From: a virus
Lineage: Duplodnaviria; Heunggongvirae; Uroviricota; Caudoviricetes
DNA: 20,843 nt
Virus record (IMG/VR): IMGVR_UViG_3300024268_000040
Direction: 5' to 3' (one strand)
Each line of letters opens with the position of its first letter. Position 1 is the first letter of the stretch. This document shows positions 1 through 20,843 of this stretch, in pieces. The notes beneath the pieces are model-generated. The model searched no databases. It was not told the origin of the DNA and was given only the letters and a program-made list of their open reading frames with translations. A program made the translations under genes and the position numbers.

Positions 1-3000
1 AACCTGTATCTTCAGCAGTAATCTCTCGATTTAAGTATTTATCAGAAGTACCACCATAGTTGGCATTACAACGAATCTGTAATTGAGAAACTGCGCCCTC
101 ATAAGCATAAGTATCTCCCAACCATTTACTATCAATATAATTAAATCTATTTCTCAAGAATAAATCTCGATGTAATTGACGACTACCCTATAAACAATAG
201 AAGCGCTTACCCTCATCTTTAGATATAGTGCCACTAGTATTAATGTAACCACTAAAAGTAGGAGCAATATATTTCCAATATTGATCAACATTAATAATAT
301 TAACGGGACGATGACCCATCATAGCGTAAGATCCACTTACATTGGCATCATAGTCATAATAACCTTTTAATTTTTCATATTTTAAGCCATTCTTGCGAAT
401 ATCTTGATAGTAAGATTTTGCAGTATCTAAGAAACATTTTTCAAAATTATACCACAATACACTACCTGCGGTAGAGAAAATACCACCTTCGGTATTAACA
501 ATAGGAGATGGTTCGACATCATATTCCCAAGAAGGTACACCTGAATTATTAACACCTAATTGAGTATCAATATCGTAGAAGATAGGATACCAGATATAAT
601 TACCACCGACCTCTTGAGGTCCCCATGTAGCCAACATCATATTCTTACCACGAGAGTCATATAATAGTAACATTTCAGTCATAATAAAATAGATTGCACA
701 ATATTCCTAATCAAACCATTTATCAAATTCATTAGCAAACTTGGCTAAACGATATTCAGCACTGTCTGTCGTATAAGTCTAACCACCAGCAGTATAAGGT
801 TCAATAGGTTCATTGGTTGGTGCCAAAGAATTGGTAGATTCTAACCACTCAGCCACTTTACGTAGGTTATCATATTTACTCAATAAGAAAGTGTTAATTT
901 CAGTCTAAGTTTTATTAGCAAAATCATTTTTCTTATCCAGAGCGTCATCAATATCATCTTCATCAACGTGATAACGATATTCAAAATCATTTAATACAGC
1001 CAATTTACCCTCATCATCTACTTCATCAAAATTAGTGACTGTAAATGATGTGCGGCCGCCTTGGTTATTTAGTAGCTCCCAGCATTCAGCAACATCTTTA
1101 AAAGTTTTGCCTTCAACATAAGGATGAGCAGTTTCATCTTCAAATCCAATAACATTATTACAACCTTTATCAAGATTATAATTGTAACGACCAATAAATT
1201 CATAGCTGCCATCTGCTTTCTTTTGGAAAACAATCATTGGGAAACCATAAACCGTAGTGCGGCGATCAGTTACATCAATATCAGGATCATAATCTTGCAA
1301 AGGATGTTTACTATATAAAGTCTTAACAAAACTAGCATAGCCCGTATTATGAGTCATAGAACTTTCCATATAATCGGCTTTCCAAGTAAATGTAGTTTCA
1401 GAGTAATGATTATCCATATAGAATCCTTTATACTCTACTCCTTCATACTCGTTCTTTTCACCGATTTCTTTACCTGCAAGAGGGCCATCAGTATATTTCC
1501 AAGAATTATCATCCTTCTTCTTGAATTTACCTTTATAATTACGACGAGGATAACCTTGAGAAGATGTTCCTTGAACGTCAAACTCAATATTAGTAGCTGT
1601 ATAACTAGGACATCCCATTAAGTATTGCGCACCAGTAATTAATTTATTTTTATAGGCATAATCCAAAGAAGGGTTGACGAAAGTTACATTAACTTTCTTT
1701 TTACCACCTTTAATATAAGGTAATAAATCCTCGGTTTTATCTACACATTCCAACACTGCATAAGCCTATAATGGACTTTCTGGATGTGCATCATTATAAT
1801 CTCTCATCTTAGTATAACTAATTGATGGGATATTATCTTTAAATTCAATAATTTGGTTCATATCATATAGCTCAGCGCTATTTTGATCGGCAATATAATT
1901 ATGAACCACATCAGCGCTTGATAAAGCAGCCTAATAAATACGAACTTTATATAAATCAACATCACAATAATTTGAGTTAATTACTAAAGTTTTTACGCCA
2001 CTAGCAAAAGAATCACTAGTTTTATCATAATTAATAATAGAACTCATAATGCCATTAATATACATATAAATCAAAGGATATTGATTGGTTGCAGCAGCTT
2101 TTTCAGCAACAAAACTTACAGTTAAAATTTCGTCTTCTTTATAACGACCAGAAGCAATAACCTGCTTAGATTTAAAGAAACCTTCTTGAGTTCCTAAGCA
2201 CATGCCAATTTCATTATCATAATAATTGCACCATACACCGTCAGTAGATTTAACAGTTTTAGTAACTTTAACTTCTACAGTATTGCCTTCTGCGTCTTTA
2301 ATTTCCTCAGAAGTAACCTCAATTAAATTTTCATACTTTTGGACATTTCTTAATTTGAATTGAATTTCAAAAGTTAAGTTAGTATCCAAATCACGAGTAT
2401 TCATAACACTAACAGGAATTTCAATGGAAGCACCATTACTAATTCTTAATACTGAATCCCCAGTAGCCAAATCATTAACCCAACCATTGTTATACCAGTT
2501 AAAATTATTAAACTTAACAACAGACTTTGTTCCATCACTACGTTCAAAGAACCAGGTTTGGCGTTCAGTCTCGTTTTCTGAATTACTTCTACCAACAGAA
2601 GTTAGATTTAAATATAAATCACTAGTTAAAATATCTAAATCTCGTAATTCATCTTCTTCTACATACAAAGATACGCTAGCAGAGGTAGTGCCACACATTA
2701 AAGTAAATGTATTTTCGCCCACCTCATAATTGGAAATATTCCAATTTAACCAGGTAGTTTCACTATGAGCGATATTATCCAAGCTAGCAATCTCATTATT
2801 ATTAATCCATCTACGAATTGAAGTACGATCAGGAGATGCTGGATCATAAACCATATATTGGATATTTAGTTTATCATGGTTAGTAATTTTCTCTGGGACA
2901 TTATTAAACCAAATAACAGGAGCATCATTATTAGGTTCCAAAAAGACAATTTGATAAATCAAAGGTTTTGTTGCAATAGTGGTAACACCAGTCTTATAAG

Positions 3001-3946
3001 ATCACTCAGCCTTCAATGTGTAAACACCATGTTTCTTTTTTGGAATAGTTACAGACATAGATTGTTCATTATCTGTTGCAAGTAAATCCTTACAGGCGCT
3101 CTCTTCCAAAACATCATCAATATATACATTTAATCTTTTCTTTACTGTGCCTACTGGAATAAAATGAAAACTCATATCAGAGTTATAGGCATATTTTAAA
3201 GGATTGAAATTAGAACTTTCTTTTAATGCTAATTCAATACAAGAAATTGAACCATATTGTAGTTGATTGGTACCAGAGTTGCTACCAATTGCCTCTACGA
3301 CTAATGTATTCTAACCTTTACCAAGCACACTACCCAGATCAAAATTATGAGTTTCTCCTGAACGGACAGAAAAGGAATAAGTGTTAGATTGTTCTGTTGC
3401 GACATTGGTAACATGATAATTTAAAATTAAAACAGAATCATGTGAAGCACCGACAGAAAAATGTATAAACTATGGCTATTCAAAAATGTAGGTTTGCGCA
3501 TTGGGAGCAGTACCTTCACAAGCCAATTCTACATATTTACCATCGCCAGTGTCTCCACCGCCGCCACCACCAGAACCCCCTCCGCCGCCAGTTCCACTAA
3601 CAGCAATACGACTACATTTCAAAATACCAGCACTTTTATTATAAGAACGAACTTTATAGAAAGTACCATTAGAATTGATAATTAAGTCGTCTTTTTTAGG
3701 AGAAGCGTCTTGATCTTCTAAATCAGCAAAATAAATGATATAACTTAAATCAGTTAAATCTTGACTAACACTTGCGGCAGTTGCATATAGAACAGAAACT
3801 CCACCACCACCAACTGGAATACGCTCACTCGCGGTATCCAAAAACATTTCACCAGTGTCAGTAGCAAAATATAAATTACCTTCAATAATTGCCTATGCTT
3901 GAATAGTATCACGCTTACCCTAAATAGGAATGAAAGGTGTATTCAT
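1..3946 (-). CDS. Gene J: giant virion-associated protein (>1314 aa, runs off left edge) with N-terminal YFATDTG module, Gly linker, beta-rich region, LamG/ConA-like domain and CotH-kinase-like domain; interrupted by one in-frame TGA at 3002-3004
   Basis: ATG at 3944-3946 with SD AAAGGAGA (3956-3963). One frame joins track ORFs 3476-3847, 1931-2962, 905-1756 and 188-682 via 11 TAG (3920, 3893, 3476, 3470, 3311, 1931, 1766, 905, 779, 707, 188). CotH-like motifs: VQGTSSQGYPRRNYKGKF (1523-1576), WKADYMESS, YDSRGKNMML, WYPIFYDIDTQLG (554-592). LamG-like ending: LIYMYING...DVDLYKVRIY. Domain names are from motif recall. Confidence 0.8.
3002..3004 (-). other. Isolated in-frame TGA at codon 315 of gene J (nonsense allele, sequence error or readthrough site)
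   Basis: Minus strand reads GCT GAG TGA TCT TAT AAG (…HGVYTLKAE*SYKTGVTTIATKPLIYQIVF…). The same frame stays open for about 1000 codons downstream, and there is no SD plus start codon after the TGA. Confidence 0.85.
3554..3598 (-). repeat. Gly-rich low-complexity linker (SGTGGGGGSGGGGGG) in gene J
   Basis: Direct translation; plus strand tccaccgccgccaccaccagaaccccctccgccgccagttccact. Confidence 0.9.
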
Positions 3947-3955
3947 ATGAAGTGT

Positions 3956-3963
3956 TCTCCTTT
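3956..3963 (-). promoter_or_regulatory. Shine-Dalgarno site of gene J
   Basis: AAAGGAGA 9 nt upstream of ATG 3946. Confidence 0.8.
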
Positions 3964-3991
3964 CTCTCAAATAATTTTTTTTGTATAAAAG

Positions 3992-4025
3992 AAAAAAGGG
4001 ACGAAAGAGATAACTCTTTCGCCCC
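3992..4025 (-). terminator. Rho-independent terminator between genes I and J
   Basis: Minus strand GGGGCGAAAGAG-TTAT-CTCTTTCGTCCC-TTTTTT: 12-bp stem with one G-U pair, 4-nt loop and U6 tract. Confidence 0.85.
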
Positions 4026-4032
4026 TTAAGCC

Positions 4033-4062
4033 TTTATATTTTATCTCTCATAGAGATTTCAA
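4033..4062 (-). promoter_or_regulatory. Possible sigmaA/sigma70-like promoter (TTGAAA-N18-TATAAA)
   Basis: -35 at 4062-4057 and -10 at 4038-4033. The AT-rich context makes a chance match possible. Confidence 0.25.
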
Positions 4063-4066
4063 TTTT

Positions 4067-4095
4067 TTTATAAATTAATGATTATTTTTTGTCCA
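4067..4095 (-). promoter_or_regulatory. Possible sigmaA/sigma70-like promoter (TGGACA-N17-TATAAA)
   Basis: -35 at 4095-4090 (5/6 match), 17-nt spacer, -10 at 4072-4067 (5/6 match), directly after the gene I stop codon. Confidence 0.4.
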
Positions 4096-4096
4096 A

Positions 4097-6463
4097 TTAA
4101 GTAGCTGGATCAAAACTATCCCAAACCATATTAATGGTCATAGTGTTGCCAGAAGCCTCAATAGTCAAATTAGAAGAAGCAGAAGTCACAGTAATCTGAC
4201 CTAAGTCACCTGCAGTACCATTACCATTCAAAGAAGTTAAGTTAATATTGGCAGAAGCTGTACCAGCAACATCAGCTACACTCAACTTACCCTGCAATTC
4301 TGCCTTATAACCAGACTGAACATGGACCCACTCAATATCAGCAGCGGCCAAAACACCCTCAGTTTCAACAGCGTCTTCTTTAGCAGTGGCAATTAACAAA
4401 TCACCAGCATAGCACTTTACTGCAGCAGTACTAGAATTATTGTCCAAATCCAGATTTAAAGCTAAATTAGATTCAGCAACAACATAAGTGTCACCAATAT
4501 GAGCATCTTTTACTTTTACAGCATCCCACTCATCAGCAGTAGAAATACCATCAATATAAGTTAAAGAATTAGCTGCATTAATTTTTCTTTCAATTTCAGC
4601 ATTTAAATCAGTTCTTAATTGAGTATCAGCAGCTTCGCGATCTTCAATTTCTTTATCAAGATCAGCCTGCTTAGCATAAGTAGAAGCAGCATTCTGCAAA
4701 GCAAGAATATCAGTACCATGAGTCTTAATAGTACCCTCAGCAGTACTTAAACGAGATTCTACATTAGCATTAGTAGTAGCCTGATCAGAATCCACTTTCT
4801 TCAAAGCATCAATTTCATCATTGATATCATTGATTGCGCCCTCATTGGCAGCGGCTTTAGCAGCAGCACCATCAGCAACACCACTTACTGCGCTAATCTC
4901 ATTAGCATTTGCAAGAGTCTTTTCATCGACTTCTTTAATAGCACCATAAACAGTAGAACCAGCAGTGCCCTTAGTGCCAATATTTTGATTAATTAAATCA
5001 ATAGCAGCAGCATTGTTAGCAGTCTCTGCATATAAACCAGAAGCAGCAGTGCTTCCAGACTTTGGAGCACCAACGGCAGTTTCTAAATTACCAACCTTAG
5101 TACTCAAACCATTAACAGTACTTTGATCAGCCTTGCCGCTTAAAGTGTTATTAATAGTAACAATATCAGCCTTAGCTTGATTTGCAACAGTCTCAGTAGC
5201 CTTCAAACGGCCCTTAATACTATCAGCTTTTTCATCATTACCAATAGCATTTTCATTAGCTTGTACTCGGCCTTCTAAAGCTTCGATATCAGCATCAACT
5301 AAAGTGTCTTTTGCTTGTAATTGAGCAATATCATATTTTACTGTACCTGCGGTATTGGCATCACCAATCGCACCATTAGCAGCAGCTGCAGAATTGGCAG
5401 CATTTAAAATATCTTGTCTAATAGTTGGTAATTCATCATTAATTGCTTTTACATCAGCTTTAATCTCGGTATCAGCATTCTCTAACTTTTGAATTCTAGT
5501 TTCATGATCAGTCTTGGCAGTTTCCAAAGGAGTCAAACGACTCTTTACGCCAGCCAAGCCATCTTCTCCCTGCAAAGCCTCAATAGCTGCATTAGTAGTG
5601 GTATCAGCAGCCTTTAACTTAACAATATCCTCAGCATTAGTGTTTGCTTTATTTTCTACTGCAGTAGTTCTAGAAGCCAAGCCATCAATGCGACTATTAG
5701 CAGTAGCGATGCTACCGTTTTCACCATCAATAGCGTCCAAACGAGTCTCATGGTCGTCTACACTATCCTGTAAGCTATTTAACCAAGGATAAACAGCAGC
5801 CTCACCTTCAGCACGAGTGCCCATGTTGGTTTCTAATGTAGTAACACGACCCTCATGATCTAAGATATCAGTAGCAGCATCAGTTTTCCAAGACTCTAAA
5901 GCTTCAATACGGTCAACCAAACCACCTTCATCATCTAAGCGGCCAACTAAAGTATTTAACTGCTCAGTCAAAGAGGCGCCTTCGCCACTTCCTAGACCTG
6001 TTAATTCATTTAATGCATCGACAGCATCTTGCAAATCTCTCAACCATACAAAAGCAGCTTTTTCGTCAGTTTCCTTGGTACCAACTTCGCCGCGCAAACC
6101 ACTAATAGCATTAGCATTAGCAGTAATGTTGCCAGACAATTCAGCAGATTTAGCAGTAAATTCTGCTGCAGTAACGTTAATAACCAAGAACTTATCTGTA
6201 GAATCATCCCAACGGATTAAAGCACCCTGATCCGCAATGTAATAAATTACATCAGTAGAATAAGGTGGCTTAGTTGCTTCAGCAAAAGCAGTAGTACTTT
6301 CATAGAACTGAACAACACCTTGAATTCTCTTAGGAGCTTTTTCTGCGTCTACGCCTAAATATAAAGAGCCCTCATCTTTAGTGAAATAAATTGCACCAAC
6401 TTCAGAAGTAGTCATTTTGACTAGATTTTCATGAGAACCCCATTTAAAATTCAAATTAGCCAT
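4097..6463 (-). CDS. Gene I: 788-aa long coiled-coil fibre-like virion protein
   Basis: Intact in either code (no TAG). SD AAAGGAGAG at 6471-6479, ends TAA. N-terminal FKWG…GAIYFTKDEGSLYLG module, then about 500 aa of Ala-rich heptads (RIEALE, RVTTLE, RLDAID, RLTPLE, RIQKLE) and a short beta-rich C-terminus. Confidence 0.85.
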   Translation of the reverse strand: MANLNFKWGSHENLVKMTTSEVGAIYFTKDEGSLYLGVDAEKAPKRIQGVVQFYESTTAFAEATKPPYSTDVIYYIADQGALIRWDDSTDKFLVINVTAAEFTAKSAELSGNITANANAISGLRGEVGTKETDEKAAFVWLRDLQDAVDALNELTGLGSGEGASLTEQLNTLVGRLDDEGGLVDRIEALESWKTDAATDILDHEGRVTTLETNMGTRAEGEAAVYPWLNSLQDSVDDHETRLDAIDGENGSIATANSRIDGLASRTTAVENKANTNAEDIVKLKAADTTTNAAIEALQGEDGLAGVKSRLTPLETAKTDHETRIQKLENADTEIKADVKAINDELPTIRQDILNAANSAAAANGAIGDANTAGTVKYDIAQLQAKDTLVDADIEALEGRVQANENAIGNDEKADSIKGRLKATETVANQAKADIVTINNTLSGKADQSTVNGLSTKVGNLETAVGAPKSGSTAASGLYAETANNAAAIDLINQNIGTKGTAGSTVYGAIKEVDEKTLANANEISAVSGVADGAAAKAAANEGAINDINDEIDALKKVDSDQATTNANVESRLSTAEGTIKTHGTDILALQNAASTYAKQADLDKEIEDREAADTQLRTDLNAEIERKINAANSLTYIDGISTADEWDAVKVKDAHIGDTYVVAESNLALNLDLDNNSSTAAVKCYAGDLLIATAKEDAVETEGVLAAADIEWVHVQSGYKAELQGKLSVADVAGTASANINLTSLNGNGTAGDLGQITVTSASSNLTIEASGNTMTINMVWDSFDPAT

Positions 6464-6483
6464 TATATTACTCTCCTTTTAAA

Positions 6484-7842
6484 TTAATTAGTTAATCCGT
6501 GCCAAGTTAAACGATCTTCAATTGCTGTAAATCTATTATTAGCAGCGGATACGTGATCATTAATAGAAGTTTCTAAAGCACTTACTTTACTGCTCACCGC
6601 AGTGACAGTAGAAGCATCAGCTTTAAGTGCTAAAACCTCATCAAGACCAGTAACTTTTGAATAATCAATTGCCTTAATAGACAAATGACCATCTTCAACA
6701 TTTAATTGATTAGTGTCAACGGTTTTAATAAACAAAGCATCTAATAGCTTATTATACATTTCATCAGTTAAATTGTTTTCAGAAAGTCCAGGGGTGGTAG
6801 CAGCATTTTTATTTAACCAATCCTCCAAGCCTTGAACATTCTCAACATTAACTGTACCAGAAATACCAACATTACCAGTCTCTTCATCAATAACTAGCTT
6901 TGCTAATTTTCCCTAATCAGTAGGACTTAATAAAGTCCAACCTTCGATCTTATCAACCTTACTATTTAAAGTATCTTGTAACCCAGTAACTTTATTGATA
7001 GTAAAAGGTTTTAAAGTTAATTGTCTATCAATACCTTCTTCACTAACAACTTCAAAATCATTAGATACAGAATTGATAATATTTTTTTCTGCATTTACAT
7101 TAACAGCTTCTAATTTTTCAGCTTCAGCAGCTGTAATTAAACGTTCACCATCCGCTTTATCAACCTTTTTGTTTAAGTCACTCTTCTTAGCATAATCAGT
7201 TAAATCGACTTCCCAAGAACCAACTTTTTCAACCACTTGAGTACCAGCAATGGTGACAACCATATACTCATCATACTTATCAGTATCAAAAATTTCATCG
7301 GCAGGTACCATAAAAATATATTGTTCAGCATCAGCATTTTCAGCCATATACTGTTCAATATCTGCTACACTACCAACAATCTTTCTCTTTAAATGAGCAG
7401 CTGCCGCAATCTTCGCGTCGGTTTCAGCCTTAGTATAAGCATCAACAGGAGCTTTCCAAGAGATTGAGCCATCAGATGCAACAGTTAATACCGTACCTGC
7501 GGCCGCTCCTTCTAATCCCTTTAAACTTAGTTCGCCAGTTTCAGAATCAACTACAAAAGCTTTATCATCAATAACTAAAACGAACTCTTCTACAGACTCC
7601 CCCGCAATAGGAGCTAAACTATTATCGGGCTGAATTACATATAAAGTAGCTTTATTATCTTCAACTACTACTAAAGTCTGACCATAATAATAAACAGACT
7701 CAGAGCTTCCAACCTCTTTTGCCAATGCTGCAGCACTAAGCGCAGCATCATAACTTTCAAAATAGCTTCGTGCATCAAGAGGGAAAGCGGAAGTAGGATT
7801 AAAAGCTACAGAGCGATTGCCCTTACCAAAGTTCATAGCCAT
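6484..7842 (-). CDS. Gene H: 452-aa tail-fibre-like protein with phage-tail-repeat (PTR-like) motifs
   Basis: Joins track ORFs 6913-7842 and 6484-6828 through one TAG (6913). Perfect SD TAAGGAGGT at 7851-7859, ends TAA. Motifs FPLDARSYF…YYYGQ, HLKRKIV…DKYDEY…VDLTDYAKK, KVDK, KVTGLQD. Confidence 0.85.
6616..6999 (-). repeat. Three degenerate PTR-like repeats in gene H
   Basis: INKVTGLQDTLNSKVDK (6949-6999), VNVENVQGLEDWLNK (about 6811-6855), SKVTGLDEVLALKAD (about 6616-6660). Confidence 0.65.
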
Positions 7843-7850
7843 AAATCTTT

Positions 7851-7859
7851 ACCTCCTTA
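7851..7859 (-). promoter_or_regulatory. Shine-Dalgarno site of gene H
   Basis: TAAGGAGGT, a 9-nt perfect complement of the 16S anti-SD, 8 nt upstream of ATG 7842. Confidence 0.9.
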
Positions 7860-9320
7860 TTAAATAGTAGCAGTAAATACATTTGCTGCATCGTAAGGAT
7901 TTGCAAAATCCATTACATAAACCTTATAATCAATAGCGCTGTGATGATCTGCGCCTTCAACTGCAATAATTTGAGGTTCGCCAAAACCAGATACAATATT
8001 CGCGTTAGAGTCGTTCTTATCCAAAACACTTGTTAAATCTTGAATAGTTGCTTCATAAGCAATAACAACTCTCATTGTTCCTACTGGAATATTAACAGTC
8101 ATAACTGAACCTGCAGTTACATCGGCATTAGTTTTATTTAAACCTCTGATAATATCAGAAGTTAAAGTATTCTTTTCAGTCAAAGTTCCATAGAAAGCAT
8201 TGCGATAACCTTTTACTGCATCAGTAACTAAATCAATAGTGCCGGCCGCAATCTTTTTACTTTCTACTGGATTTCCTAAATTGGAAACAGGAACAGCACC
8301 CTCAGTATAGCTAACAGTAGCACTGATTTTATACTCAGTAGTATCATCTACAATAAAAGTAGATAATTTACCAGATGCCACATCATTAGATCCACCATTG
8401 GTGTCGGTTACAGCATATGTTGCAGTAATACCTGTGTCAGGGCCATAAGTATATTTGCCTTTACTAAAAGTAATAGCATAACTTGGCTCATAGGAAGTTC
8501 CAGCCTCAACACTAGCAGCACTCTACAAAGCAATAGATGCACTAGGTTTAGTAGCGGATGGATTCTGCTCAGCTGCGAATAAGCCTGCAAAAAATTCTTT
8601 CAAATTTTTGCCTGCTGCTTTTACAGTGGTACTACCAGAAGAAGGAATGGTTACAGTGCCTAATGCTTTAGTGAAAATAAAATCTTCATCAAAGTAGACA
8701 TTTTCAGCATTATAATTACCATCCATCGCCGCCCATTCTAAACCGTCATAAACGTAGGCAGTATGTTGATAATTACCTTCGACAATAATATCTTTAACGA
8801 TTGCTATGTCGCCAATTGCCAAAGTCTTTCCAGTAGTGTTGCTACCAATTAATTCAATATGATCAACATTATCAACATTCTCTAACTCAAACACTTGAGC
8901 TGTAATGGCCACCCATTTACCATCACTACGTAAATAGCGATTTACATCTCCGGCGGCGGGGGCTGGAACAAGACCAGCTTGTCCATCAGAAGTTGAATTA
9001 GCTCCAATCATAACGCTAATGGCTTCTGCTAAAGGCTTATTTACCCAAGCGCCATTAGTGCCTGCGGAAGGATCATAAATCAATAGATCTTTATTAGCAA
9101 GACCTGCATTGATAACAACGTCGCTTAATTTAGCTAATGAAGTAGCACCAATAGATTCATCATTGGCACCGCTTGAAATTAACTTAGAACCTAAATACAA
9201 ATCAGCTGTTGAAGCATCATTATCATAAATAAAATACAAAGTATCTAATTCAAGCTGATCTTTTGGTAATGCTTTAAAAGCTTCAGTTGTACCTCGTCTA
9301 AATTTTACATAATTAGCCAA
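7860..9320 (-). CDS. Gene G: 486-aa fibre/appendage-like virion protein
   Basis: TTG start with SD AAGGGAG (9329-9335). Joins track ORFs 8523-9320 and 7860-8381 via one TAG (8523), ends TAA. N-terminal KFRRGT…LYF…LYLG module, fibre motifs LAKLSDVVI…LIYD…WVN and GLVPAPAAG…YLRSDGKW, and a beta-rich C-terminal half. Confidence 0.85.
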
Positions 9321-9380
9321 AATAATCTCTCCCTTCTTTTCAAAATTATTATATATAAACTTCCCTCAAAAAGAAAGAAA

Positions 9381-10196
9381 TTATACTAAAGAATTAACTT
9401 TTTCTTCAAGAGTTTTTACTTGCTCTTGTAAGGATTTAATATTTTCAGATAATAAACCAGTGGTTTGAACTAAGCCCTAAATACTAGCAGACAACGTACC
9501 AATTTGAGCTTCAGTATAATCTTTTAGATTTAAAATTGACTATGTTAATGTAATATCTTCATCTTCTAAAAGGATTCGAAATGAATCTACATTGCCAATA
9601 ATTTCACTAATTGATTCATCACTATCATCAGTTACTAAACTAAAATCCCCAATGGTATCATCTAAAGTATTAACCTAATCATTTAATTTATTAATACTTT
9701 GAGCATTGTCTTTAATTTCTTTATTCATTGTACTAGTAACTTCTTCAAGCTCATCTACAGCAGTTTCCAAATTATCAATATCACTAATAATATCAATAAC
9801 GGGCATGCGATAATAAACTGCTTCATTAGAAGCGGGTAAAATATGTCCCGCTTCATCATATTGAATAATAGGAACTTTAAAATAATCTCCAGAAGCCAAT
9901 TCAGTAACTGAAGATGGCGCTGGAGGAGATTCACTTTTTTCAATCCCCTAAATAATAGTTGGGGTTATAGTATTTGGTAAACTATGCCAAATTTTACAAC
10001 CTTCATTATCAGGCTAAATTTGAATCCATCGGTTACCACTATCAATACCAAAGACACCTGTGCGGCTATCGGCCTCGAGAGAGCCATTAGATGGCTTATT
10101 AGTTAAAAATTGTTTTGAATCCCAACCGGAATTTTTAAATAAAATTTTTGCAAAAGATTGCGCAACTTGATAATATATAGAACCATAAAAACTCAT
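9381..10196 (-). CDS. Gene F: 271-aa hypothetical structural-module protein with acidic/coiled-coil C-terminal half
   Basis: ATG 10196 with SD GGAGGT (10203-10208), ATGA-overlapped with the gene E stop. Joins 10014-10196 and 9675-9899 through 5 TAG (10014, 9948, 9675, 9540, 9477), ends TAA 9381. Confidence 0.8.
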
Positions 10197-10543
10197 ACAT
10201 ATACCTCCGGTCCATCATACACTATATCCACGATGAGTCTATGATTAATGCTTTCACTATTATTATAAGTTTTAGTTAATACCTTATCATCAAATCTCAA
10301 ACCGGTAATACGACCAACACCTTCTAAATCAAGTTCATAAATACCTGTATTACCAATAGTAATAGGGTTGTTTCCTCCATTTAAATAGAAAACAACCCCC
10401 GGTTCGCCCTATATACCAAGATGAGATACTGCTCCATAGTTATAAAATAAATTATTTGCCCAATCTCGTTCAGCCAATGAGCCAGATGGATAATTATTTT
10501 CATTTCCAGGACCATGATAGCGGAACTACATCATTCGTTTCAT
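10193..10543 (-). CDS. Gene E: 116-aa small beta-rich protein, missing from the ORF track
   Basis: ATG 10543 with SD TAAGGAGG (10552-10559). Two TAG (10526, 10409) hide it under code 11. Translation MKRMMQFRYHGPGN…SHLGIQGEPGVVFYLN…IGNTGIYELDL…LIVDIVYDGPEVYV, ending TGA that overlaps the gene F ATG. Confidence 0.85.
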
Positions 10544-10556
10544 ATCTCATCCCTCC

Positions 10557-13004
10557 TTATATAATATTCTCTGCGGCCTTTGTCGCAGTAATAGACATTG
10601 TACCATTATAAGATAATGGTAAAGTAATTTTACTTACAATATAATCTCCATCCAATCCTGTATCATCATCATGTAAATAAATACGAGTATTTGGTTGAAG
10701 ATAATAAATTGGAATAGCTGTAATTGTAGCACTTTCAATACAATAACTGTGCTGATATAATAACTCATCTAATCGCTCTTTTGCGGATTTACCTTGCGCG
10801 CTAATTGAAAACATACCATCAATCTCAGCGCATTGAATATAGCGAAAACCAGGTAAAGCGCCCGTCTCACCGGGAGCCGCATAAATAACATTAGGAGTTT
10901 CTCTAAAGTAAATGGACTTTACATTAGAGTCATTGATTGCTTTTGGCCGTGCGCCAATGTTCTTTACATCGTATTTAGATAATTCACTAGATTTCTTTTT
11001 ATCTTCATGTGAACCATCTAAAAAATCAAACCAAAAGTTTAAAGTTTCAGGTTTTTTATATACGGCCTTGTTCCAATATCTATGATCTCCGCTCTAATAA
11101 TAATTTTCATTTCTGTCCTCAATTAGTTGCTCTACTTTTATAGTAATTTTATCTAATTCATAATTTAGATTTTCTAAACGATCTTTTTCTCTAAAATATA
11201 AATCGTTTAAAATTCCCATTGCGATATAAGGATCAGAAACATTAATAAACAAAGAAGCATACTGTGGATACTAATTTTTAAATTGAATTAATATCTAATT
11301 GGCTTCTGTTTGATCATCATCAGATAATTCGTTATTAATTGCAGCTAAATAGTTTTCTAGTCCTCCGATACGATTATCGGTATTTGGATTTTCTTCTCCA
11401 AAAACAATCACAGTCAAAGTGTCTACCTATTGTTGTAAATTAGTCTATGTGTTTAAAGCCTCTTGATATTGTTCATCCAATTCTGGATAATATAGCTATC
11501 TCCAAAAGCCTTGTAAGTCAATATAATAAATTTCATATCCTGTGCGGCCAGTCGGATATAAATCTCCATTCGCTTTGGCTACTCGCAATTCAAAGTCGCT
11601 TAAAAAATTATATTTATAATAATCAAGTGCCATTTGATAAATTACTTCACGCCAATCTGATTCATCTGCTGTAATTGTAGAAGATTCCTATCCTTTTACA
11701 TTTACTTTATAATTATTATTATAAGTTTGTAACTCTTTATTATTATCTTCTACAAAAATTTTTGTATATTGTTTTGGTTTGCGATCAATAGCATAACGAA
11801 TATGTACTGGAATTTTTGCTCCACTCACACTTTCACGTTCACCCCAAATTGAATAATCATTTTTAAGATTTAATAAATTGGGATTATTATTAAATGCTGT
11901 AATTAACTCACTACCACTAAACATATATGAATGTGTTGAAGCGAGCGCTAGAGCCTGGCTCATAGGTGCATTTGAAGTTGTGGCCGCAGGTGACCACATT
12001 GTAGAAATAAAGGACTATTTTTTCTAAAAAATAAATCTTCCATCTATATCATAAAAATATTCAAATTCAACTAACATATTTTTAATTTTATCTAATACGC
12101 TAGTTAAACTTTCACCTACATTCGCAATTAAGTCTCCTGCATATACTAAATCAGTTTCTCTATAGCCCGCAGTCTAACCATACTCAACTTTTGCTACATA
12201 CCACTCTTGACCGTCCATTTCAATAATTACATTAGTTAAAGTTCCTGTAAATGGATCAACTAACATTTCTAATTCCTCTGGCCGCAAACGATCGAGAGTC
12301 TTCGTCTCTCCGGTTTTTTGGACCCTACAGATTTTTTTTCCATCAAGGGTAGCATTACGATAAGACTAATCATGAATACTTCTATACAAATACATTGGAA
12401 TATCATATCTATATTCTAGCAATTCTAAACCGTATGTATCTAAATCATTAATAATGATATTATGTAATGGTTCTCCACCATATACATGAACTGCATTACG
12501 AATAATATCTTGGATAGGAATCTTTCTAAGAGTCCATACACCTTCAGCATTTTCTTCCTCAATACAGCCAAAATCAATTGAAGATTCTAATGTACCTCCA
12601 ATTTCACCATTTAATAAAGCCATTTTATCTTTGCCTTGAATGGTTATAGAAAAATTATTCGTACTACGAGAAGTATTAAAAACGGTAATTAAAAAAATAC
12701 CTTGATTAAACCAGATAATTTTAGGATACTTAGTATCAATAGTATTTTCAACACCAACTTCTAACTTAAATTTAGTATTTAAACCCCAATAAAAATCATT
12801 ATATTTAAAATCTTGTGCCACAATAGTTAGAGAACAGGTACGACGGACCGCAGAGGATCCATCAATATTAATAGACCCCTGCGTAACACGTCCTTCAATA
12901 GTTTCAATGGGTAGCTCTTGAAAAGTAAGAGCAGTAATACGAGCATAAATAATTTTATTTTTTGATTTATCTAATTTTAATAAAAAATCTTTATCATATA
13001 GCAT
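10557..13004 (-). CDS. Gene D: 815-aa DUF5048-like tail-tip/baseplate-hub-type structural protein
   Basis: Joins 12366-13004, 11688-11999 and 10557-10814 via 11 TAG, ends TAA. Motifs GRVTQGSINIDGSSAVRRTCSL, VLDKIKNMLVEFEYFYDIDGRFIFQKK and ITAIPIYYLQPNTRI…DYIVSKITLPL resemble phage hub/Tal-like proteins of Bacillota phages (recalled, not searched). Confidence 0.75.
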
Positions 13005-15546
13005 TTATGCTCCCCCTTCCTATAGTAGCTTCATATGTCGAAATCAAAGCTCGATAATATTTTTCAAATAAACTATAATTCTCAGGGTCTTTTTCCCAAT
13101 CTTGTCTCCACTATAAAAGTTTACCTGTTTCAAAAGTATAATATTTTGTATTTAATTGATATACAATATCTACAAATAAAGCATTACCTAAATACATATA
13201 TTTAATATCGGATAAATTGGTTAAAATCATACGACCTGCAGTTCTAATACTACTATATTGACCAGAAATTAAACTACCATCCTCCTTAGTCTTGTTATTG
13301 GTAATATCAAATGTGTAATCTAAATCTAATGAAGAACCAATTAATTTTCTAGTCCATCCATCATAATATTTATCATCACATTTTACAATAACATCGATAG
13401 TTGGATGATATTCTTTGCTACCATCCCAAAAACGATATTTACCACCTTCAATAGCAGTAACTGATAATACAGTAATAACAGGTCGTTCCTGAACTTTAAG
13501 ATAATAAACATTACCAATGCTTTCTCTTAATGGAGAAGCAAGATTAAACACTGAATTATAAATACCTTTATCTAAATGAGCCTCAATCTCATCTCGATTC
13601 TAACCAATCCATGTATCAATTTTGTCTTCAATTTTAACATCTTCAATGATACTGAAAGGCTCAATAGTAGCTTCAGTATATTGCGCATAAGTTAATACAG
13701 CGCTACTCCAAGAGGCAGAAGACTAAGCTCTAGCCTATAAAAATACTAGCGGATTTTCAGCTAACAAATATTTATCAAATTCATAAATACCAGTTACACC
13801 CAAATCAGCTTCTTTAATATTATCATTTTGTAGTTGATAATAAAAACGAATATTTGGCTACCCGATAATCGTAGCCATAACAGCGTTACCTCTCCAAATA
13901 CCAAACTATGAACTTGGAATATCACTTAAAGTAACTTGAATAAACTCTAAATCACGAGTTTCTAATTTTTCTTCCATAAGCATACCATAAGCACGTAAAT
14001 TTTCAAAAGTACAATCTGCAATTTCATAAGCTGTGCTTGTAAAAGTATGAAGCATACGACTTAAAGTATCATTAGGACTCATTGAAGTATTCATTAAACG
14101 CACAATAAAACTGCCCTCGCCAGGAGACCGGAAAAGTTTAGGTTTACCATTAGTTAACCATTCTAAGACTTCCATTTTAAATTCTCGTTCCTTATGAAAA
14201 TTATCTGCGCTCAAATCAGTATGGCTACTAGTTAAATCACCGCGATACTCTTCTGAATTAATAAATGGAGTATTTACTCGATAAGGCTCTATAGTTTGAA
14301 GCCCCTCAATAAATTCGTTATTCTCATCCGTTAATACACTAATAAGACCTGAAATTGGAAATTCTTTATATTTTACATTGCCATTGCGGAAAAAGAAAGG
14401 ATACTTTCCGCCAATAGTATCCATTTTAGATTCTAGAATAGTATTTTTAAAAGAAGATACTTTTGGATTGTAGCGAATACGCAATTGGCGTTTACCATCA
14501 CTTAAATACATATCTTCAAAATCAACGTCTAATATATCAGTTTCAATACGCTTAGAATAAATGCCTGCCGCATTAAAAGCTTGTAGTGCATATTTATAAG
14601 ATACTCCTTGAGATACACAGTAATCTCGACATAAATACCTACGGGACTAACTATCCCAATTAGCCAAAACAAATTCAGTTAACTAATACCAACTTTGATA
14701 GTTATCTTCATTAGAAGCACGAAGCAATAAAAATTGTCCATTAATAAATTTGCGGTCTTCTGGTTTTGTCGTGCTATGAGGCTCAATTGAAAGCTCCACG
14801 TATGCGCCGGCCGCATCATTTCTAGCAACAAATTGATAATATTTTAAAATATCTGTATCAACTGCTTGATTATCAGTGATACGATATTTTTGGCTTTCTT
14901 CTACTAATCCATTAATTGTTTTGACACAGTATTGAATAGTAAAATCTCCATCACATCCGTATCTTGTTGTCCAGGTATCCTATGATTTATCAGTAAATTC
15001 ATCAGTAGAAGAATTATGCAATAATTCTCCACTAGTCTACACAGGAGTATCTTTTCCTAATTCAAATATATTAAACCAATAAGAATAAACTTTTTCTGAT
15101 GGGTCTAATGCATTCTCATAAACTCCCGTATAATTATAAATATTTGTATTAATTTTAATACCACCCTCTAAATCTTTTATAATTAAAGAGGGCTATGAAG
15201 TATATTTAAAAGTTCCTACTGAAGAATAGAAACCATCATTATCATTTTCACCATCCATATTGACATATGCTAATTGCACTTTATAATACTAACCAATTGA
15301 AAAATCAGATTGATTAATTGGAAATAAAGCAATCCATTGGTTATTCTTATAATACCACTAATCCACTTCACAAGTTGCAGTAGTAATTTGAACATTAGTC
15401 TATACAGATTTAATAATCGCTCTCATTTTTACCACATCACCTTTAGCAACAGAGCGATTCATTTGAAAGGGAATGCGTAATGTATCTCCCTTTTGAGCTA
15501 CAATAACGCCATCAATAAGTGGCGGATTTAATTTTACAACTGCCAT
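12994..15546 (-). CDS. Gene C: 850-aa structural protein, probable FN3/Ig-like domains plus distal-tail (Dit)-like domain
   Basis: ATG 15546 with SD AAAGGAGA (15553-15560). 14 in-frame TAG; joins 13906-14511 and 13111-13551; ends TGA 12994, overlapping the gene D start by 11 nt. Motifs RDYCVSQGVSYKYALQAFN and KYKEFPISGLIS…LTNGKPKLFRSPGEG…FTSTAYEI. The Dit/FN3 labels are inference. Confidence 0.75.
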
Positions 15547-15575
15547 TTTAGTTCTCCTTTCTCACCTTATAATAA

Positions 15576-15605
15576 AGTAAGGTGTCAGATTTCTGACACC
15601 TTACT
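15576..15605 (-). terminator. Perfect 14-bp inverted repeat, probable terminator/attenuator after gene B
   Basis: Minus strand AGTAAGGTGTCAGA-AA-TCTGACACCTTACT followed by TTATT (imperfect U tract), 7 nt after the gene B stop. Confidence 0.6.
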
Positions 15606-15612
15606 ACATATA

Positions 15613-15981
15613 TTAGTCAATCATAAACATTAAAGCTTCCATTTGAGCAGTAGTCAGAGTCAAATCATCACTTAAAGCATCGACACTAATCTTAGAAATA
15701 TTAACATCCTGCTCTAAATTAAACAAATCCTCTAATTCCTTGCTAGCCTCAGCAAGCTTATCATTAGGAATCTGATATTGCTCGCCAGACTCATCTAATA
15801 CACCATAAGTCTGAGCAATTTCTAAACGAGCCTTTTCAATATCCTGTGCCAAACTCAGAAGAGTATTCTTATTCTTCTGAAGATAGAAGTTAATCTTAAT
15901 AGGTAACTTCTGTTCGCCATCCTGGAATGCATCCATTAACTGACGAGTATAAGTATAAATTTCATTATTTGTCATTTTCAT
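15613..15981 (-). CDS. Gene B: 122-aa acidic helical protein, DUF1617-like phage tail-region protein
   Basis: ATG with SD AAAGGAGA (15992-15999), TAA stop, no TAG. The pattern KLPIKINFYLQKNK…IEKARLEIAQTYG…ELEDLFNLEQDVNI resembles small proteins that follow tail-fibre genes in Bacillota phages (recalled). Confidence 0.7.
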   Translation of the reverse strand: MKMTNNEIYTYTRQLMDAFQDGEQKLPIKINFYLQKNKNTLLSLAQDIEKARLEIAQTYGVLDESGEQYQIPNDKLAEASKELEDLFNLEQDVNISKISVDALSDDLTLTTAQMEALMFMID

Positions 15982-16032
15982 AAGAAAAAAATCTCCTTTA
16001 TCTCAGTTTTTATTTTTTTTTATGTTAACTAA

Positions 16033-19000
16033 TTATACATAAGAATAACCAGTATAAATAGTAACCTGTTCGAGAGTGCCACTACTATTCTACGCAGCAT
16101 ATAATATCCCAGTACTACTTTTATATAAAGTAATAGAATGTCTATGATAAGTAGATTGCCAAGATGGCCCACTGTCATTGGCACCAGTACCATTACCTAT
16201 CCAAGCGTAACCACTAGATCCTTTAGATGTTGGAGCATATGGATAAGTGGATCCCTATGATATTGTTTTCCACTCTAATCCAGTAGCATCACTATTAGTT
16301 GCTAACACTTGACCTGCAGATCCTACAGAAATTGCAACAGGTATACCATCAGAAAAGTATACCGGCCAATTAGTACTGCCAACACTATATTTTGTACCAG
16401 AACCATTGGCTAAAGTTAAAGCACTATTTGCAATTGCTACTTTATTATCTCCAATTAAAGTAAATCCTCCGCCAAACTCAGCAATATAATTTGGCAATGT
16501 ATATGTTACATTACCCACACGGATATGAGTATCTTCTGGAATTTCTAAATAGTGATAAATAAGAGTAGAACATTCTGTATTACCTACTCCCAATTGTACT
16601 TTATTTGTAGCCAAAGTAATTGTCGAACCATAAAACCACATTCCGCCACCAGAATCTTTGTTTACCAAAAGATAGGTATCTGCATCAGAAAAATATAAAG
16701 TGCCTGAAAAATAGCTTTTACCATTAACTCTTAAATCATAATTATTATCTGGCTCAATTCCAATTCCTAAATTTCCTGTAATATAAGTGTCTCCACTCAC
16801 TTTTAATACATAATCATCAACTGGATCAGTACCAATACCAGTATGACCACCAATTCGAGTTTTTCCATTAACTCGTAAATCCCATGTATCATTTGGAGCA
16901 ATACCAATTCCTACGTGTCCAGTTAAATAAGATTTTCCATTTACATATAAATGATAATCATTATTATAACTACTCTAACCTATTTTTAAATGACCAGAAA
17001 TCCAACCTTCACCACTTAATTCAAATTTACCTGTAGTTTTAACAGCTAATGTACCATGAACCGTTAAAGAAGTTAATTCTGCATTAGTAGCAGTTAATTT
17101 GCCTCCTGAAGTAACATTAAATGTCTCTCCTGCTTTGATACTAGAACCTGAAATATTAGTACCAGAAATAGTACCACCAGAAATGGCTGAACCACTAATA
17201 GCTCCAGTACTACCATTTAAAATAACGCTATTATTAGCGCTCTATAAATTACCATCTGAAGTAACTTTCCAATTGCCGATAGAACCAGTGCCACTAACAT
17301 TAAGATTACCACTAATATTTATATTACCAGATAAATCAGCATTAGTAAATTTAGCATTACCAGCCGCATCAATAGACCAGGGAGATGTCGATCCTCCCTA
17401 AATACTACCATCCCATTTAATTTTAAAAGCATTACCAATTTCAATTGGTATTCCATTAGGATTATTCGTAATGGATAAAGTATTAGTACCACTATCTCCA
17501 GTAAAAGTAATTAAGCCTGCTCCATCATTATCATATGCATCAATAATAATATTACTTGAACGTAACTCAAAATCAAATGCATGAATGTGACCAGTACTTA
17601 AATCAATTTTCATACCAGCACCGGGTACGCCATTTGCTCCGATTGGATCAAAATCATCAGATTTTAAATAATATCCATCAGAACCAATATAAATTAAATT
17701 ATTTCCACTCGTATTATTTTTTACAACTAAAAATGCAGTAGCTCCATCACTAGAATCAATCATTACATTTTTAGAAGTTAATTTAAAATTAAAAGCATCA
17801 ATATAGCCTTTAACTAAATCAAAATAAGTACCTTCACCTCGATCATTAGCAACTCCGTCAGTAATCCAATAGGTACCAGACCGATAATTTCGAGACTATA
17901 AGAAATAATTATTTAATCCAATAGAAATCAATGGTTTTAATTGCCAAGCACCTTCAATACCACTAGAATCCTTATTCCAAGGAACTTCAATTAAAAAATA
18001 CTAATTAGTATTAGTAGATCCGTTCGTTCCAGTAGCACTTAATAAAATATGATTTGCATATCTACTAGCAATAGTATTATTAATAGCTTCTGTCGTGCCA
18101 TCTTCTTTGTAAACAGTTTCATAATACTTATATCTATTCCCATCAGAACCTAAACTTGCACCACGAATATCAATATATCCGTCATTCAAATCAATTTTCA
18201 TGCCTGCGGGAATATCATAAATAATAGCGCCATCTTGTTCACTACGATCTAACCGAGTCTATTCATAAGAAGCACTTGTAATCGCACCTTTATTGCCATC
18301 GAATTTAATACGACCACGACCTGCTTTACCAATAAAAGCAGTGCCATCAATATTAAATCCAAAACTCTAGGCACCATCATTAAAACCATATACACCATAT
18401 CCAGTTTTTGCGTCAAGATCAATACCAGCATTACCGCCAATATCACCCATCAACACACCTTGAAATGTATTATTTTCAGTTTTCCGTCCAGCACCTACCA
18501 TTGATGATAATATTGTACCATTTTTTTTGTCAATTGTCAAGCTACCGTCCCAATCATTGAGTACAGAAGATGCAAAACGATTCTATGTAATTACAATAGG
18601 CTGAGACCATAATAAATCATTTGTAATTGCAGAATATGCTTTTACAACAGCATAACAATCAATATTATCCAAATATAATGAAGCTGGAGTTAAACCACCC
18701 GCATCATTAATAATTGGCATATAATTACGATAAAACTAATACTCTTTATTGTTTTCATCTGTAAATTGTACACCATTTGCGTTATAATATTCAATATCCC
18801 AATTAACATCAATTTGATCATTGGGATTATAAGTCTTAGATCCTAAAGTTATTTTTTTCATTGCAAATAACTTATAAGGATTATCAAACATACTTCTATT
18901 ATCAATAGTACCAAAACTATTATAGACAATAGAAGTTGGTCCAGAAATATAATAATCTCCTGCAGCCGCTGGTATTGCACGCACTGTCTCTAGTGTTACC

Positions 19001-20843
19001 GTACGATATTTCACTGTTCCTGCAGTCTCCTCAGCAGCCCCGGCCGCACTTAACTGAAATTTCGTACTTGCCTTAACAATACCACAACTTCCACCAAAAG
19101 CAGTTAAACCAATAACTTTATTTCCATCTTCAATTTTTGTAGGAGCATTGCCATTTAATTTAAACAACCAAGAGGAAGTAAATTCAGAAGTCTATCCGAC
19201 TCCATTAGCTCCAATACTGAGATCAATTTCTTCATTATTAAAATCTCTTAAAGATACATCTAAAATTAAATTTTTAGTGGGTAAAGTTGCTACCTAATTT
19301 GTAGCAGGATTAATAGATAAAGTATATTTAGTACCATTGCTACCTATTACTCCAAAATTAAAAAATTCTTCGCCACTTACAATATCATTATCAGTAGCAG
19401 CTCTAAATTCACATTTAATAGAATTAATACTTGCGGAAGCATCATAGTACGGTTTAATTTTATACCAAAAATCTCTTGTATCAAATCCATTACCATCCAA
19501 GAAAGTCCATTTACCAGACTCATCTTTTTCTCCCTAAATCTATTTATAAAAACAAATATATCCAGCTTTTGAATAAGGTGGTTTTGGATTCATTTCATAA
19601 TCAGTGACAAATCCATGAGCGATAAGCTCATCAATATTAACAGTTAACATAGTTGAAGTAATAGGAACGTACCAATAAATACCTCCGCTAGCAAGGATTT
19701 CATCACCATATAATAAACCATCATATTTAACTCGAATTTGTCGTAAATGGCTTGCGTCAGCGCTATCCATTAAATAATTAGTTAAATTATAGCATTGATA
19801 ATCATTGCGAGATTTATCAATATGTTCAAAGATTAATAAATCTCCTGTTTCAATATTTGCGGTTTCGGGTATCCGATCTTCGTTAGTAAAAATTAACTCA
19901 TCGCTTTCATACATTGCATGATTATAAAATAATACTGCTTTGTATTTTTCTTCAGATTCATTAAATCTCATTATAACATCAATTAATCCCTCTCCTGGAG
20001 CGAGTTTAATTGCATTATAAGTTTTACCATCAATTTTTTCACCTTTACCAGGAACACCTATATTGCGAGGAAGTTCAGTTAATCTACGCCAACCGTTAGA
20101 TAAAAACTAATGAACTTCATTATTAACATAATCTTTATCATATCTAAACCAATAAATACAATACTTATTATCATAAGCACTTAAATCTTTCTTAATATAA
20201 GATTTCCATTGAGTTTTTGTATTTTTGTAAGATTGTAAAGTATTATAATCAACACCATTAAAAACATCAATTGGAAAATCATATTTACTTTCTGGATCTA
20301 AATACTCTTCCAAAGTATTTAGCACTCGTTCCAATCGTATTTTATAAGTGTCATAAACTCCTGCATATCCACTATATGCGGCAGCATCTCCATACACTCC
20401 TGGTTTAATGACATTATTTAATAACGCTTCAATCTTTTGTCGCACAGTTTTAAAAGCAATCTTTATATTATTTCCATAGTGAATATCCCATTTACTATTC
20501 CAGTTATTTATTTTTTCACTATCGCTAGCCCATTCAAGATTTTGAGTTTTTACACCATGTGCTAATACACCCTTATATTGTGCTTCCAAAAGCTCAAGAT
20601 TGTCATCAATATCTGCGGCAAGGGCAGCTAAAGAATCGGACCCTCCGGCGGCCGCAAGCGCAATTAATTTATCAATTTCATTTGTAAAAGTAGTAACTCC
20701 TTCTACCTAAGAACGCAAAGCTCTTAAAGTAGTTGTTAAATCCTAAGTGACTACTTTCATTGCCTTTGTAATTAAAGGAATAGCTTCTTCTAGATTAGCA
20801 GCAAGATTTAAACTATCTCGGTCTGTCGGGATACCTTCTCTAC
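16033..20843 (-). CDS. Gene A: >1602-aa large tail/central-fibre-like virion protein (start outside window)
   Basis: One frame joins seven track ORFs via 18 TAG (20743, 20707, 20107, 19540, 19534, 19294, 19192, 18736, 18583, 18367, 18259, 18001, 17896, 17398, 17242, 16975, 16255, 16090) with no TAA/TGA until 16033. Fibre motifs: AISGSAISGGTISGTNISG, GxxGIG repeats, VGSTNWPVYFSDGIPVA, GSAGQVLATN…LEW. Confidence 0.85.
16705..16995 (-). repeat. Four tandem 24-25-aa repeats in gene A
   Basis: GHLKIGQSSYNNDYHLYVNGKSYLT / GHVGIGIAPNDTWDLRVNGKTRIG / GHTGIGTDPVDDYVLKVSGDTYIT / GNLGIGIEPDNNYDLRVNGKSYFS; spacing 75, 72, 72, 72 nt. Confidence 0.85.
17398..18204 (-). repeat. Three degenerate 70-125-aa repeats in gene A
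   Basis: Units begin GMKIDLNDGYIDI (18204), GTYFDLVKGYIDAFNFKL (17832) and GMKIDLSTGHIHAFDFEL (17616). Units 1 and 2 end LISIGLNNYFLQSRNY and LIYIGSDGYYLKSDDF. Confidence 0.7.

Follow-up and report, generated by a model that had tools for sequence, protein, structure and literature searches.

In a 20,843-base stretch of DNA from the IMG/VR virus record IMGVR_UViG_3300024268_000040 (the window, by which we mean the whole stretch that was analysed), the codon TAG appears to be read as glutamine. We interpret the window as the part of a late operon that encodes the tail tip, baseplate and fibres of a large siphovirus-like phage, uncultured and living in the animal gut, that would use genetic code 15 (TAG = Gln, with TAA and TGA as stops), and judging from the sequence we put the probability of this interpretation at roughly 0.93. 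The initial annotation had proposed that TAG is reassigned to glutamine across the operon, and this proposal is supported by a likelihood test, by bootstraps, by the continuity of homologs across the TAG codons, and by tRNAs with a CUA anticodon, tRNA(CUA), in closely related strains and in relatives.

Coding sequence was found on the minus strand only, with all genes in one direction. When TAG was treated as sense, 11 long open reading frames (ORFs) tiled 98.1% of the window, whereas under the standard code (code 11) there were ~20 scattered ORFs of ≥80 amino acids (aa) that covered 61%. Measured with ORFs of ≥100 aa, coverage rose from 0.61 (code 11) to 0.98 (TAG as sense), while opening TGA or TAA instead gave 0.63 and 0.80, respectively; thus, in the comparison of tables 15 and 11 that had been suggested, only the opening of TAG restored coverage. 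Genome-wide, ORF coverage increased from 0.60 to 0.96 when TAG was opened. The coding frame (6811 codons) contained 63 TAG, no TAA and one TGA (3002-3004), compared to 681 TAA and 590 TGA in the two non-coding frames. The total of 63 in-frame TAG codons reported previously was reproduced exactly from the TAG-sense ORFs (6+5+0+1+1+5+2+11+14+0+18). They had been assigned to 8 of 10 genes; as written, the count is 9 of 11 ORFs, and the earlier figure holds if ORFs 3002..3970 and 2..2962 are taken as one gene, as we do because they form a single gene in every public copy.

The statement that the genes end only in TAA or TGA agrees with nine gene ends (7 TAA and 2 TGA), but the tenth, TGA 3002-3004, is absent from every public copy. 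This result is partly circular, as a read-through ORF finder can stop only at TAA or TGA. Independently of read-through ORF calls, none of the 35 code-11 ORFs in the second of two early-like gene blocks of this phage (described below) ends in TAG. An AGGAG/GGAGG motif precedes 8 starts, so that the claim of starts preceded by Shine-Dalgarno sequences stands for these and fails for the listed TTG starts at 3970 and 2962. The region 9321-10556, in which one gene ('gene E') had been described as invisible under code 11, indeed has no code-11 ORF of ≥80 aa, and the CAA CAA TAG run is present at 11435-11427.

Glutamine opposite the TAG codons

Relatives were collected by scanning IMG/VR with the 815-aa tail protein of the window as the query, which yielded 49 related loci, and all 11 window proteins, with TAG written as X, were compared to these loci by tblastn. 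In 25 of the 49 loci there were stops inside the alignments, and every one of them was TAG, never TAA or TGA. The remaining 24 loci had none; they collapse to eight non-redundant standard-code lineages, in which code-11 ORFs cover 93% of the loci and the stops are TAA, TGA and rarely TAG. Among the standard-code relatives (L009-L030) TAG terminates 3 of 78 long ORFs, i.e. it is already rare as a stop in the standard-code members of the lineage.

The eight standard-code relatives could be aligned at 47 of the 63 TAG sites. Glutamine accounted for 62 of the 271 residues opposite these TAGs (22.9%, ∼7 times the 3.3% background), and in the same alignments the true CAA/CAG codons of the window faced Gln in 30% of cases. 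The homolog columns proposed as a check are thus enriched in Gln, and the homologs are not split at the TAG positions, as the high-scoring segments of the standard-code relatives run across them. From those alignments we built an empirical substitution model for a likelihood test of each amino acid. Q was best, followed by K (−92 nats), A (−93) and E (−97), and the one-step neighbours of TAG (W, Y, L and S) lay at −140 to −390 nats. When each of the 47 columns contributed a single observation, Q was ahead by 12 nats and came first in 4888 of 5000 bootstraps (98%); it also remained first on omission of any single gene. Conserved columns were Q in 6 of 10 cases at TAG and in 12 of 18 at true Gln codons. 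Likewise, in 12 of 12 recoded lineages the lineage's own TAGs were best read as Q.

At single sites, all eight standard-code relatives carry Q opposite the TAGs at 10409-10411, 12024-12026, 15289-15291 and 18583-18585, and Q is found in 6/8 of them at 18367-18369, in 6/7 at 17896-17898 and in 4/4 at 10526-10528. Several sequence contexts had been put forward as containing Gln in related phage proteins. Three of these (GRFIF-TAG-KK, G-TAG-YYKVQ and LGI-TAG-G) have Q in 8/8 standard-code relatives each; FWR-TAG-LY has Q in three of seven relatives, and L-TAG-GSR has it in the two relatives that could be aligned, both of them recoded themselves.

Suppressor tRNAs in related strains

The window lies in IMG/VR record G000, a fragment of 64,138 bases judged 34% complete, which corresponds, in reverse complement, to the final 64 kb of the 110,489-base JGI contig Ga0257077_10000997 (L099, L102-L111; identical over 22,367 bases). 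We walked this parent contig by exact-protein look-ups. Its remaining 46 kb contain small-gene blocks and a tRNA array: beyond a sigma-factor-like gene there are two opposite-strand small-gene blocks and then 30 tRNAs, the array being cut by the contig end just after Pro(GGG), ∼6 kb before the expected suppressor site. In strains with 96-97% identity over the array, the tRNAs follow the same order up to Pro(GGG); after it come Gln(UUG), Gln(CUG), Tyr, Thr and Ser, followed by two adjacent tRNA(CUA) genes. No same-sample or same-strain contig spans the last ∼6 kb to this site. The first tRNA(CUA) does not vary by a letter among eight contigs, nor does the second among seven, each contig coming from a different sample; in the eighth, a G-C pair in the anticodon stem of the second is replaced by A-U, a compensatory change. 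With 50-51 bits both exceed the cut-off of the Rfam tRNA model (29), and both fold into a cloverleaf. Furthermore, tRNA(CUA) was present in 5/5 recoded relatives with intact arrays versus 0/5 standard-code relatives that were ≥90% complete. The genome search for such a tRNA, which had been suggested as a check, was therefore positive in the 96-97% identical strains and in the recoded relatives, and negative in the 64-kb record itself.

In both tRNA(CUA) the 1:72 pair is unpaired and position 73 is G, and the second begins with the first 10 bases of the phage tRNA-Gln(UUG) and has G2:C71, G3:C70 and G10. Because of these features both are probably charged with Gln. The first has C2:G71 and C3:G70, unlike the Gln-like G2:C71 and G3:C70, and its counterpart in record G002 has the acceptor 5′ strand of the genuine tRNA-Gln(UUG) of G004. 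A release factor or Gln-tRNA synthetase had also been proposed as a target of the search; no PF00472 (RF-1) or PF00749 (GlnRS/GluRS) domain was found in G000, G002, G006, G007 and G009, all but one of which are incomplete. As these phage records yielded neither domain, charging would probably be performed by the Gln pathway of the host. In E. coli, amber suppressors have been derived from tRNA-Gln (supE) and from tRNA-Trp (su+7, which inserts Gln). The phage tRNAs resemble these in the CUA anticodon, the weak 1:72 pair and G73, and also in the predicted insertion of Gln at UAG in competition with release factor 1 (RF1), but unlike them they are phage-borne, duplicated and would serve hundreds of sense TAG codons.

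The two suppressor genes abut without a spacer (L115:17570-17719; also L117, L120-L126 and L128). They differ strongly from each other, and each has ∼60-65% identity to any other tRNA of the array. Four more distant recoded relatives carry tRNA(CUA) of 88-91 nt (L086:9888-9975, L088:8380-8468, L089:11125-11214 and L092:7137-7227) whose acceptor stem is Gln-like and whose extra arm is long, ∼19 nt (a 4-bp stem plus tail). Arms of this kind are usually a mark of Ser, Leu and Tyr tRNAs. In the relatives with this version (G006-G009) the TAG columns are still best read as Gln. It is conceivable, though we consider it unlikely, that this suppressor build (two dissimilar adjacent tRNA(CUA) here, a long-arm version in sister lineages) is new. 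If the long-arm tRNAs are truly charged with Gln, they would be an unusual solution to tRNA identity, and the extra arm might help to evade host defence or to recruit the charging enzyme.

Two further tRNA predictions were made in these arrays. In G008 (L089:11343-11414) there is a predicted tRNA with a UUA anticodon that would read TAA; the aligned genes have no in-frame TAA. At L111:13713-13786, and at the same place in L112, L115, L116 and L119, ARAGORN predicts a tRNA whose anticodon loop is abnormal, with an 'anticodon' of two bases, where related arrays (L113, L114 and L118) hold tRNA-Pro(UGG). This may be a decaying or unusual tRNA.

Distribution of TAG and alternative explanations

The density of TAG differs between gene blocks (ORFs in the small-gene blocks were called strand-restricted). 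In the late block TAG occurs 10.3 times per 1000 codons and makes up 26% of the Gln codons. In the two divergent small-gene blocks by the tRNA array the corresponding values are 2.6 and 1.1 per 1000 and 7% and 4%, so that TAG is 4-10 times denser in the late block (Fisher odds ratio 5.8, p = 8e-18). Within the late block the TAG share varies by gene (chi-square p = 9e-11) and is anticorrelated with the CAG share (rho = −0.71) and with the GC content at third codon positions (GC3; rho = −0.49). The major-capsid-like, scaffold-like and tube-like genes and the 788-aa and 122-aa genes of the window are TAG-free, GC-richer and use CAG. In G000, TAG-free genes outside the window lie at 47899-48894 and 52885-56415. 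Some TAG-free genes are without any CAA, among them the major-capsid-like gene (12 CAG) and the scaffold-like gene (15 CAG). TAG-rich genes have almost no CAG.

A likely explanation is that recoding acts as a gate on late genes, in line with the proposed timing of late gene expression to which the initial annotation had referred. The large tRNA array adjoins the TAG-poor, divergently transcribed small-gene blocks, and in the 96-97% identical strains it includes the two adjacent CUA tRNAs, which the strain studied here would be expected to share. Once loaded with Gln, probably by the host pathway, the suppressors would accumulate and out-compete host RF1 at TAG, giving full-length late proteins. 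Before their build-up, the late genes, in which ∼1% of codons are TAG, would be truncated. The probable most abundant virion proteins (major-capsid-like and scaffold-like) avoid TAG and use CAG, which would fit incomplete or costly suppression. Such a gate corresponds to the published model, in which a naive host can read the early genes while the late genes depend on suppressors; the codon distribution fits it, and we regard it as likely but unproven. The same distribution fits relaxed selection under AT pressure equally well.

Several points weigh against the interpretation given at the outset. Using ARAGORN and the Rfam tRNA model, we detected no tRNA in the window or in the 64-kb record (a scan of the window with Rfam at gathering score gave nothing at all), and the tRNA(CUA) genes are seen in 96-97% identical strains and not on DNA joined to the window. 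The early and late status of the blocks is deduced from gene content and strand, and none of the sequencing runs listed with this DNA is RNA. Some conserved TAG columns lack Q: E at 14683-14685 (8/8), K/R at 12015-12017, H at 14980-14982 and D at 12174-12176. The non-Q scatter at TAG columns is, on the other hand, matched by that at true Gln codons. Finally, the standard-code relatives offer no aligned homolog for 16 of the 63 TAGs, and a few TAGs close to 3′ ends might therefore still serve as stops.

Alternatively, the recoding could be real but a neutral by-product of AT-biased mutation of CAG to TAG under weak selection, in which case the suppressor tRNAs would do no more than render such changes harmless, the pattern would reflect expression level and there would be no switch. 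We regard this as possible, although doubtful. The anticorrelation of TAG share with GC3 and CAG share and the GC-richness of the TAG-free genes would be expected from it, and the rarity of TAG among the stops of standard-code relatives fits a drift route (10.1101/2021.08.26.457843). However, the early-like blocks match the TAG-free virion genes in GC3 and yet avoid TAG 4-10 fold, and since they consist of many small genes, these are unlikely to be all highly expressed. Moreover, the Q residues of standard-code relatives opposite the window TAGs are encoded by CAA in 52 cases and by CAG in 10. The notion that TAG is simply mutated CAG was rejected on this ground.

A second alternative, which we consider very unlikely, is that TAG is ambiguous or stands for another residue, either because the two CUA tRNAs are charged differently (Gln and a second amino acid) or because TAG is mainly Glu or Lys. 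The dissimilarity of the two suppressors, with C2:G71 and C3:G70 in the first, and the conserved columns with E, K, H or D in relatives could be taken to point in this direction. Against it stand the lead of Q over K, A and E by 92-97 nats and in 98% of column bootstraps, with W, Y, L and S far worse, and the acceptor 5′ strand that the G002 counterpart of the first suppressor has in common with the G004 tRNA-Gln(UUG). In addition, the U35 of the anticodon drives Gln charging even in the tRNA-Trp-derived amber suppressors of E. coli.

It is less probable still that the host itself reads TAG as Gln and that the phage matches it, with no code switch in infection. Relatives of the large terminase (TerL) are found in bins of metagenome-assembled genomes (MAGs) from many taxa, which leaves room for such a host; however, the phage lineage carries its own suppressors, the early-like blocks seldom use TAG, whether as a sense codon or as a stop, and sister lineages that share the gene order have the standard code and no tRNA(CUA). 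To our knowledge, no bacterium with TAG = Gln has been established. A standard code, with genes broken up by pseudogene decay or faulty assembly, has a negligible probability, as apart from the bare presence of stop codons nothing speaks for it, while TAG alone, never TAA, interrupts the genes, homology stays in frame across the TAGs, and letter-for-letter the same sequence was obtained from several independent samples.

The phage, its relatives and the genes of the window

Beyond the window and in the same direction, G000 encodes a 3122-aa tape-measure protein, virion structural proteins, the major-capsid-like protein, the portal, TerL and the sigma-factor-like protein; this gene order indicates that the window forms that end of the late operon which encodes the tail tip, baseplate and fibres. 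TerL shares 46% identity with that of the Enterococcus phages VRE9/H1/EF1, 45% with that of Geobacillus phage E3 and 44% with that of phAss-1. The value is 33-36% for Bacillus/Brevibacillus phages, in one of which the protein is annotated as YonF. Precomputed Pfam assignments of the parent contig include the head genes YonB, YonD_N and YonG_N. Judged by these shared head and packaging genes, the phage belongs with the SPbeta/Yon-type large siphoviruses of Bacillota (the wider EF1/phAss-1 group). Its whole genome is probably ∼180 kb, and one ENA contig of this phage measures 181 kb. The public runs with this DNA come from animal faeces, bovine gut and sheep gut. A tree built from the 815-aa protein joins the window to the L004 lineage (support 99), within a clade of recoded phages. 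The eight standard-code lineages form a cluster that includes one recoded lineage, and at least two changes of code are needed.

Close TerL relatives (≤88% identical) lie on contigs of 37-176 kb (L129-L148) that were binned in MAGs of unrelated phyla. Assigning a host from these bins was rejected, as Acutalibacteraceae, Lachnospiraceae, Erysipelotrichaceae, Bacilli, Mollicutes, Treponema and Bacteroidales all occur alike; the contigs look like phage contigs mis-binned into bacterial genomes. The same phage DNA appears as shredded fragments in JGI gene calls and as full-length read-through genes (850, 815, 271 and 2225 aa) in ENA calls.

TAG-to-Gln recoding with suppressor tRNAs, a late-gene bias and standard-code sister lineages has been described (Borges 2021, 10.1101/2021.08.26.457843), and in crAss-like phages recoding was shown by peptides (Peters 2022, PMC9523058). 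As here, TAG in the published recoded gut phages (PMC9523058) is concentrated in structural and late genes with early genes nearly free of it; further shared traits are a phage tRNA(CUA), seen here in the 96-97% identical strains, close standard-code relatives, low GC, rare TAG stops in those relatives and hosts presumed to use the standard code. The present phage is, however, neither crAss-like nor Lak, given its SPbeta/Yon-type head genes and a TerL 44-46% identical to that of Enterococcus/Geobacillus phages. Some Lak and Agate genomes carry release factor 2, whereas none was found in the records of this phage.

In the group of phAss-1 (proposed Phassvirus) and Enterococcus phage EF1, these two phages have genomes of ∼136-140 kb (Babkin 2023, PMC10607447). 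Like the present phage, phAss-1 has a large genome and a large set of tRNAs (36, including suppressor tRNA(CTA) genes), TAG in the TerL, portal, tape-measure and fibre genes, and no dedicated synthetase (PMC10607447). The two differ in the number of suppressors (three in phAss-1 versus two in tandem in the near strains of this phage) and in source (human gut versus bovine, sheep and other animal faeces), and with 44% identity in TerL and 33% in the N-terminal part of the 815-aa tail protein phAss-1 is only distant kin, probably of a different genus or subfamily. The suggestion that the lineage itself may be unknown did not hold, as the related TAG-recoded phAss-1 group is published (PMC10607447), dozens of relatives are in IMG/VR and ENA calls already read through TAG. 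The phenomenon is well described, and this phage adds an SPbeta/Yon-type case to it and leaves the known picture unchanged. In practice, code-11 annotation turns the 20.8-kb block into ∼20 fragments with one gene wholly hidden, and surveys of tail fibres and host range in ruminant viromes need code 15 for this lineage. With recoded and standard sister clades, suppressors and a TAG-poor early region, the lineage is a convenient system for tests of the late-gene gate.

The features of the window are as follows:

16033..20841, minus strand: final 1602 codons of a 1976-aa gene that extends past the window and follows the 3122-aa tape-measure gene; 18 TAG
15613..15981, minus strand: 122-aa gene (phrog_1401); no TAG, Gln encoded by 8 CAG and 2 CAA
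12994..15546, minus strand: 850-aa tail/baseplate-like gene; 14 TAG, its TGA end overlapping the next start by 11 nt
10557..13004, minus strand: 815-aa tail protein (phrog_32343 and phrog_1887); 11 TAG
10193..10543, minus strand: 116-aa gene ('gene E'); 2 TAG, no CAA/CAG, code-11 pieces <80 aa
9381..10196, minus strand: 271-aa coiled-coil structural gene; 5 TAG
7860..9320, minus strand: 486-aa gene (phrog_35541); 1 TAG
6484..7842, minus strand: 452-aa gene; 1 TAG
4097..6463, minus strand: 788-aa Ala/Thr-rich fibre-like gene; no TAG, 11 CAA and 11 CAG
2..3946, minus strand: first ∼1300 codons of a long tail-fibre gene; 11 TAG, 2225 aa in public copies
3002..3004, minus strand: in-frame TGA made by letters private to the window; public copies read TTA

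Three letters of the window, all inside an 11-base span (2993, 3001 and 3003), are not those of G000, and they create the TGA that splits ORF 3002..3970 from ORF 2..2962, the frame being the same on both sides. TTA stands at this site in three more assemblies, which come from other samples, and in the Logan contigs of two possible source runs, all of which are elsewhere identical to the window over the 7.6-16.5 kb covered. The fibre gene is also unbroken in G000, L099, L100 and L101 and in the standard-code relatives L011 and L030. The gene end at 3002-3004 is thus supported by no public copy, and the fibre gene is continuous there. Recoding of TGA, which this codon might suggest, was rejected, as its letters occur in no public copy.

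The start of the fibre gene is most likely ATG 3946, which lies behind AAGGAG and matches the 2225-aa ENA gene call, and not TTG 3970, which has no ribosome-binding site. In the public copies the LRR_5 domain of this gene sits beyond the part contained in the window. PHROG and Pfam searches gave weak names only: tail protein for the 815-aa gene, and otherwise families of unknown function. The 788-aa fibre-like gene has the highest GC content in the window, and an exact copy of its protein is encoded by contigs in 26 blocks of the public collection.

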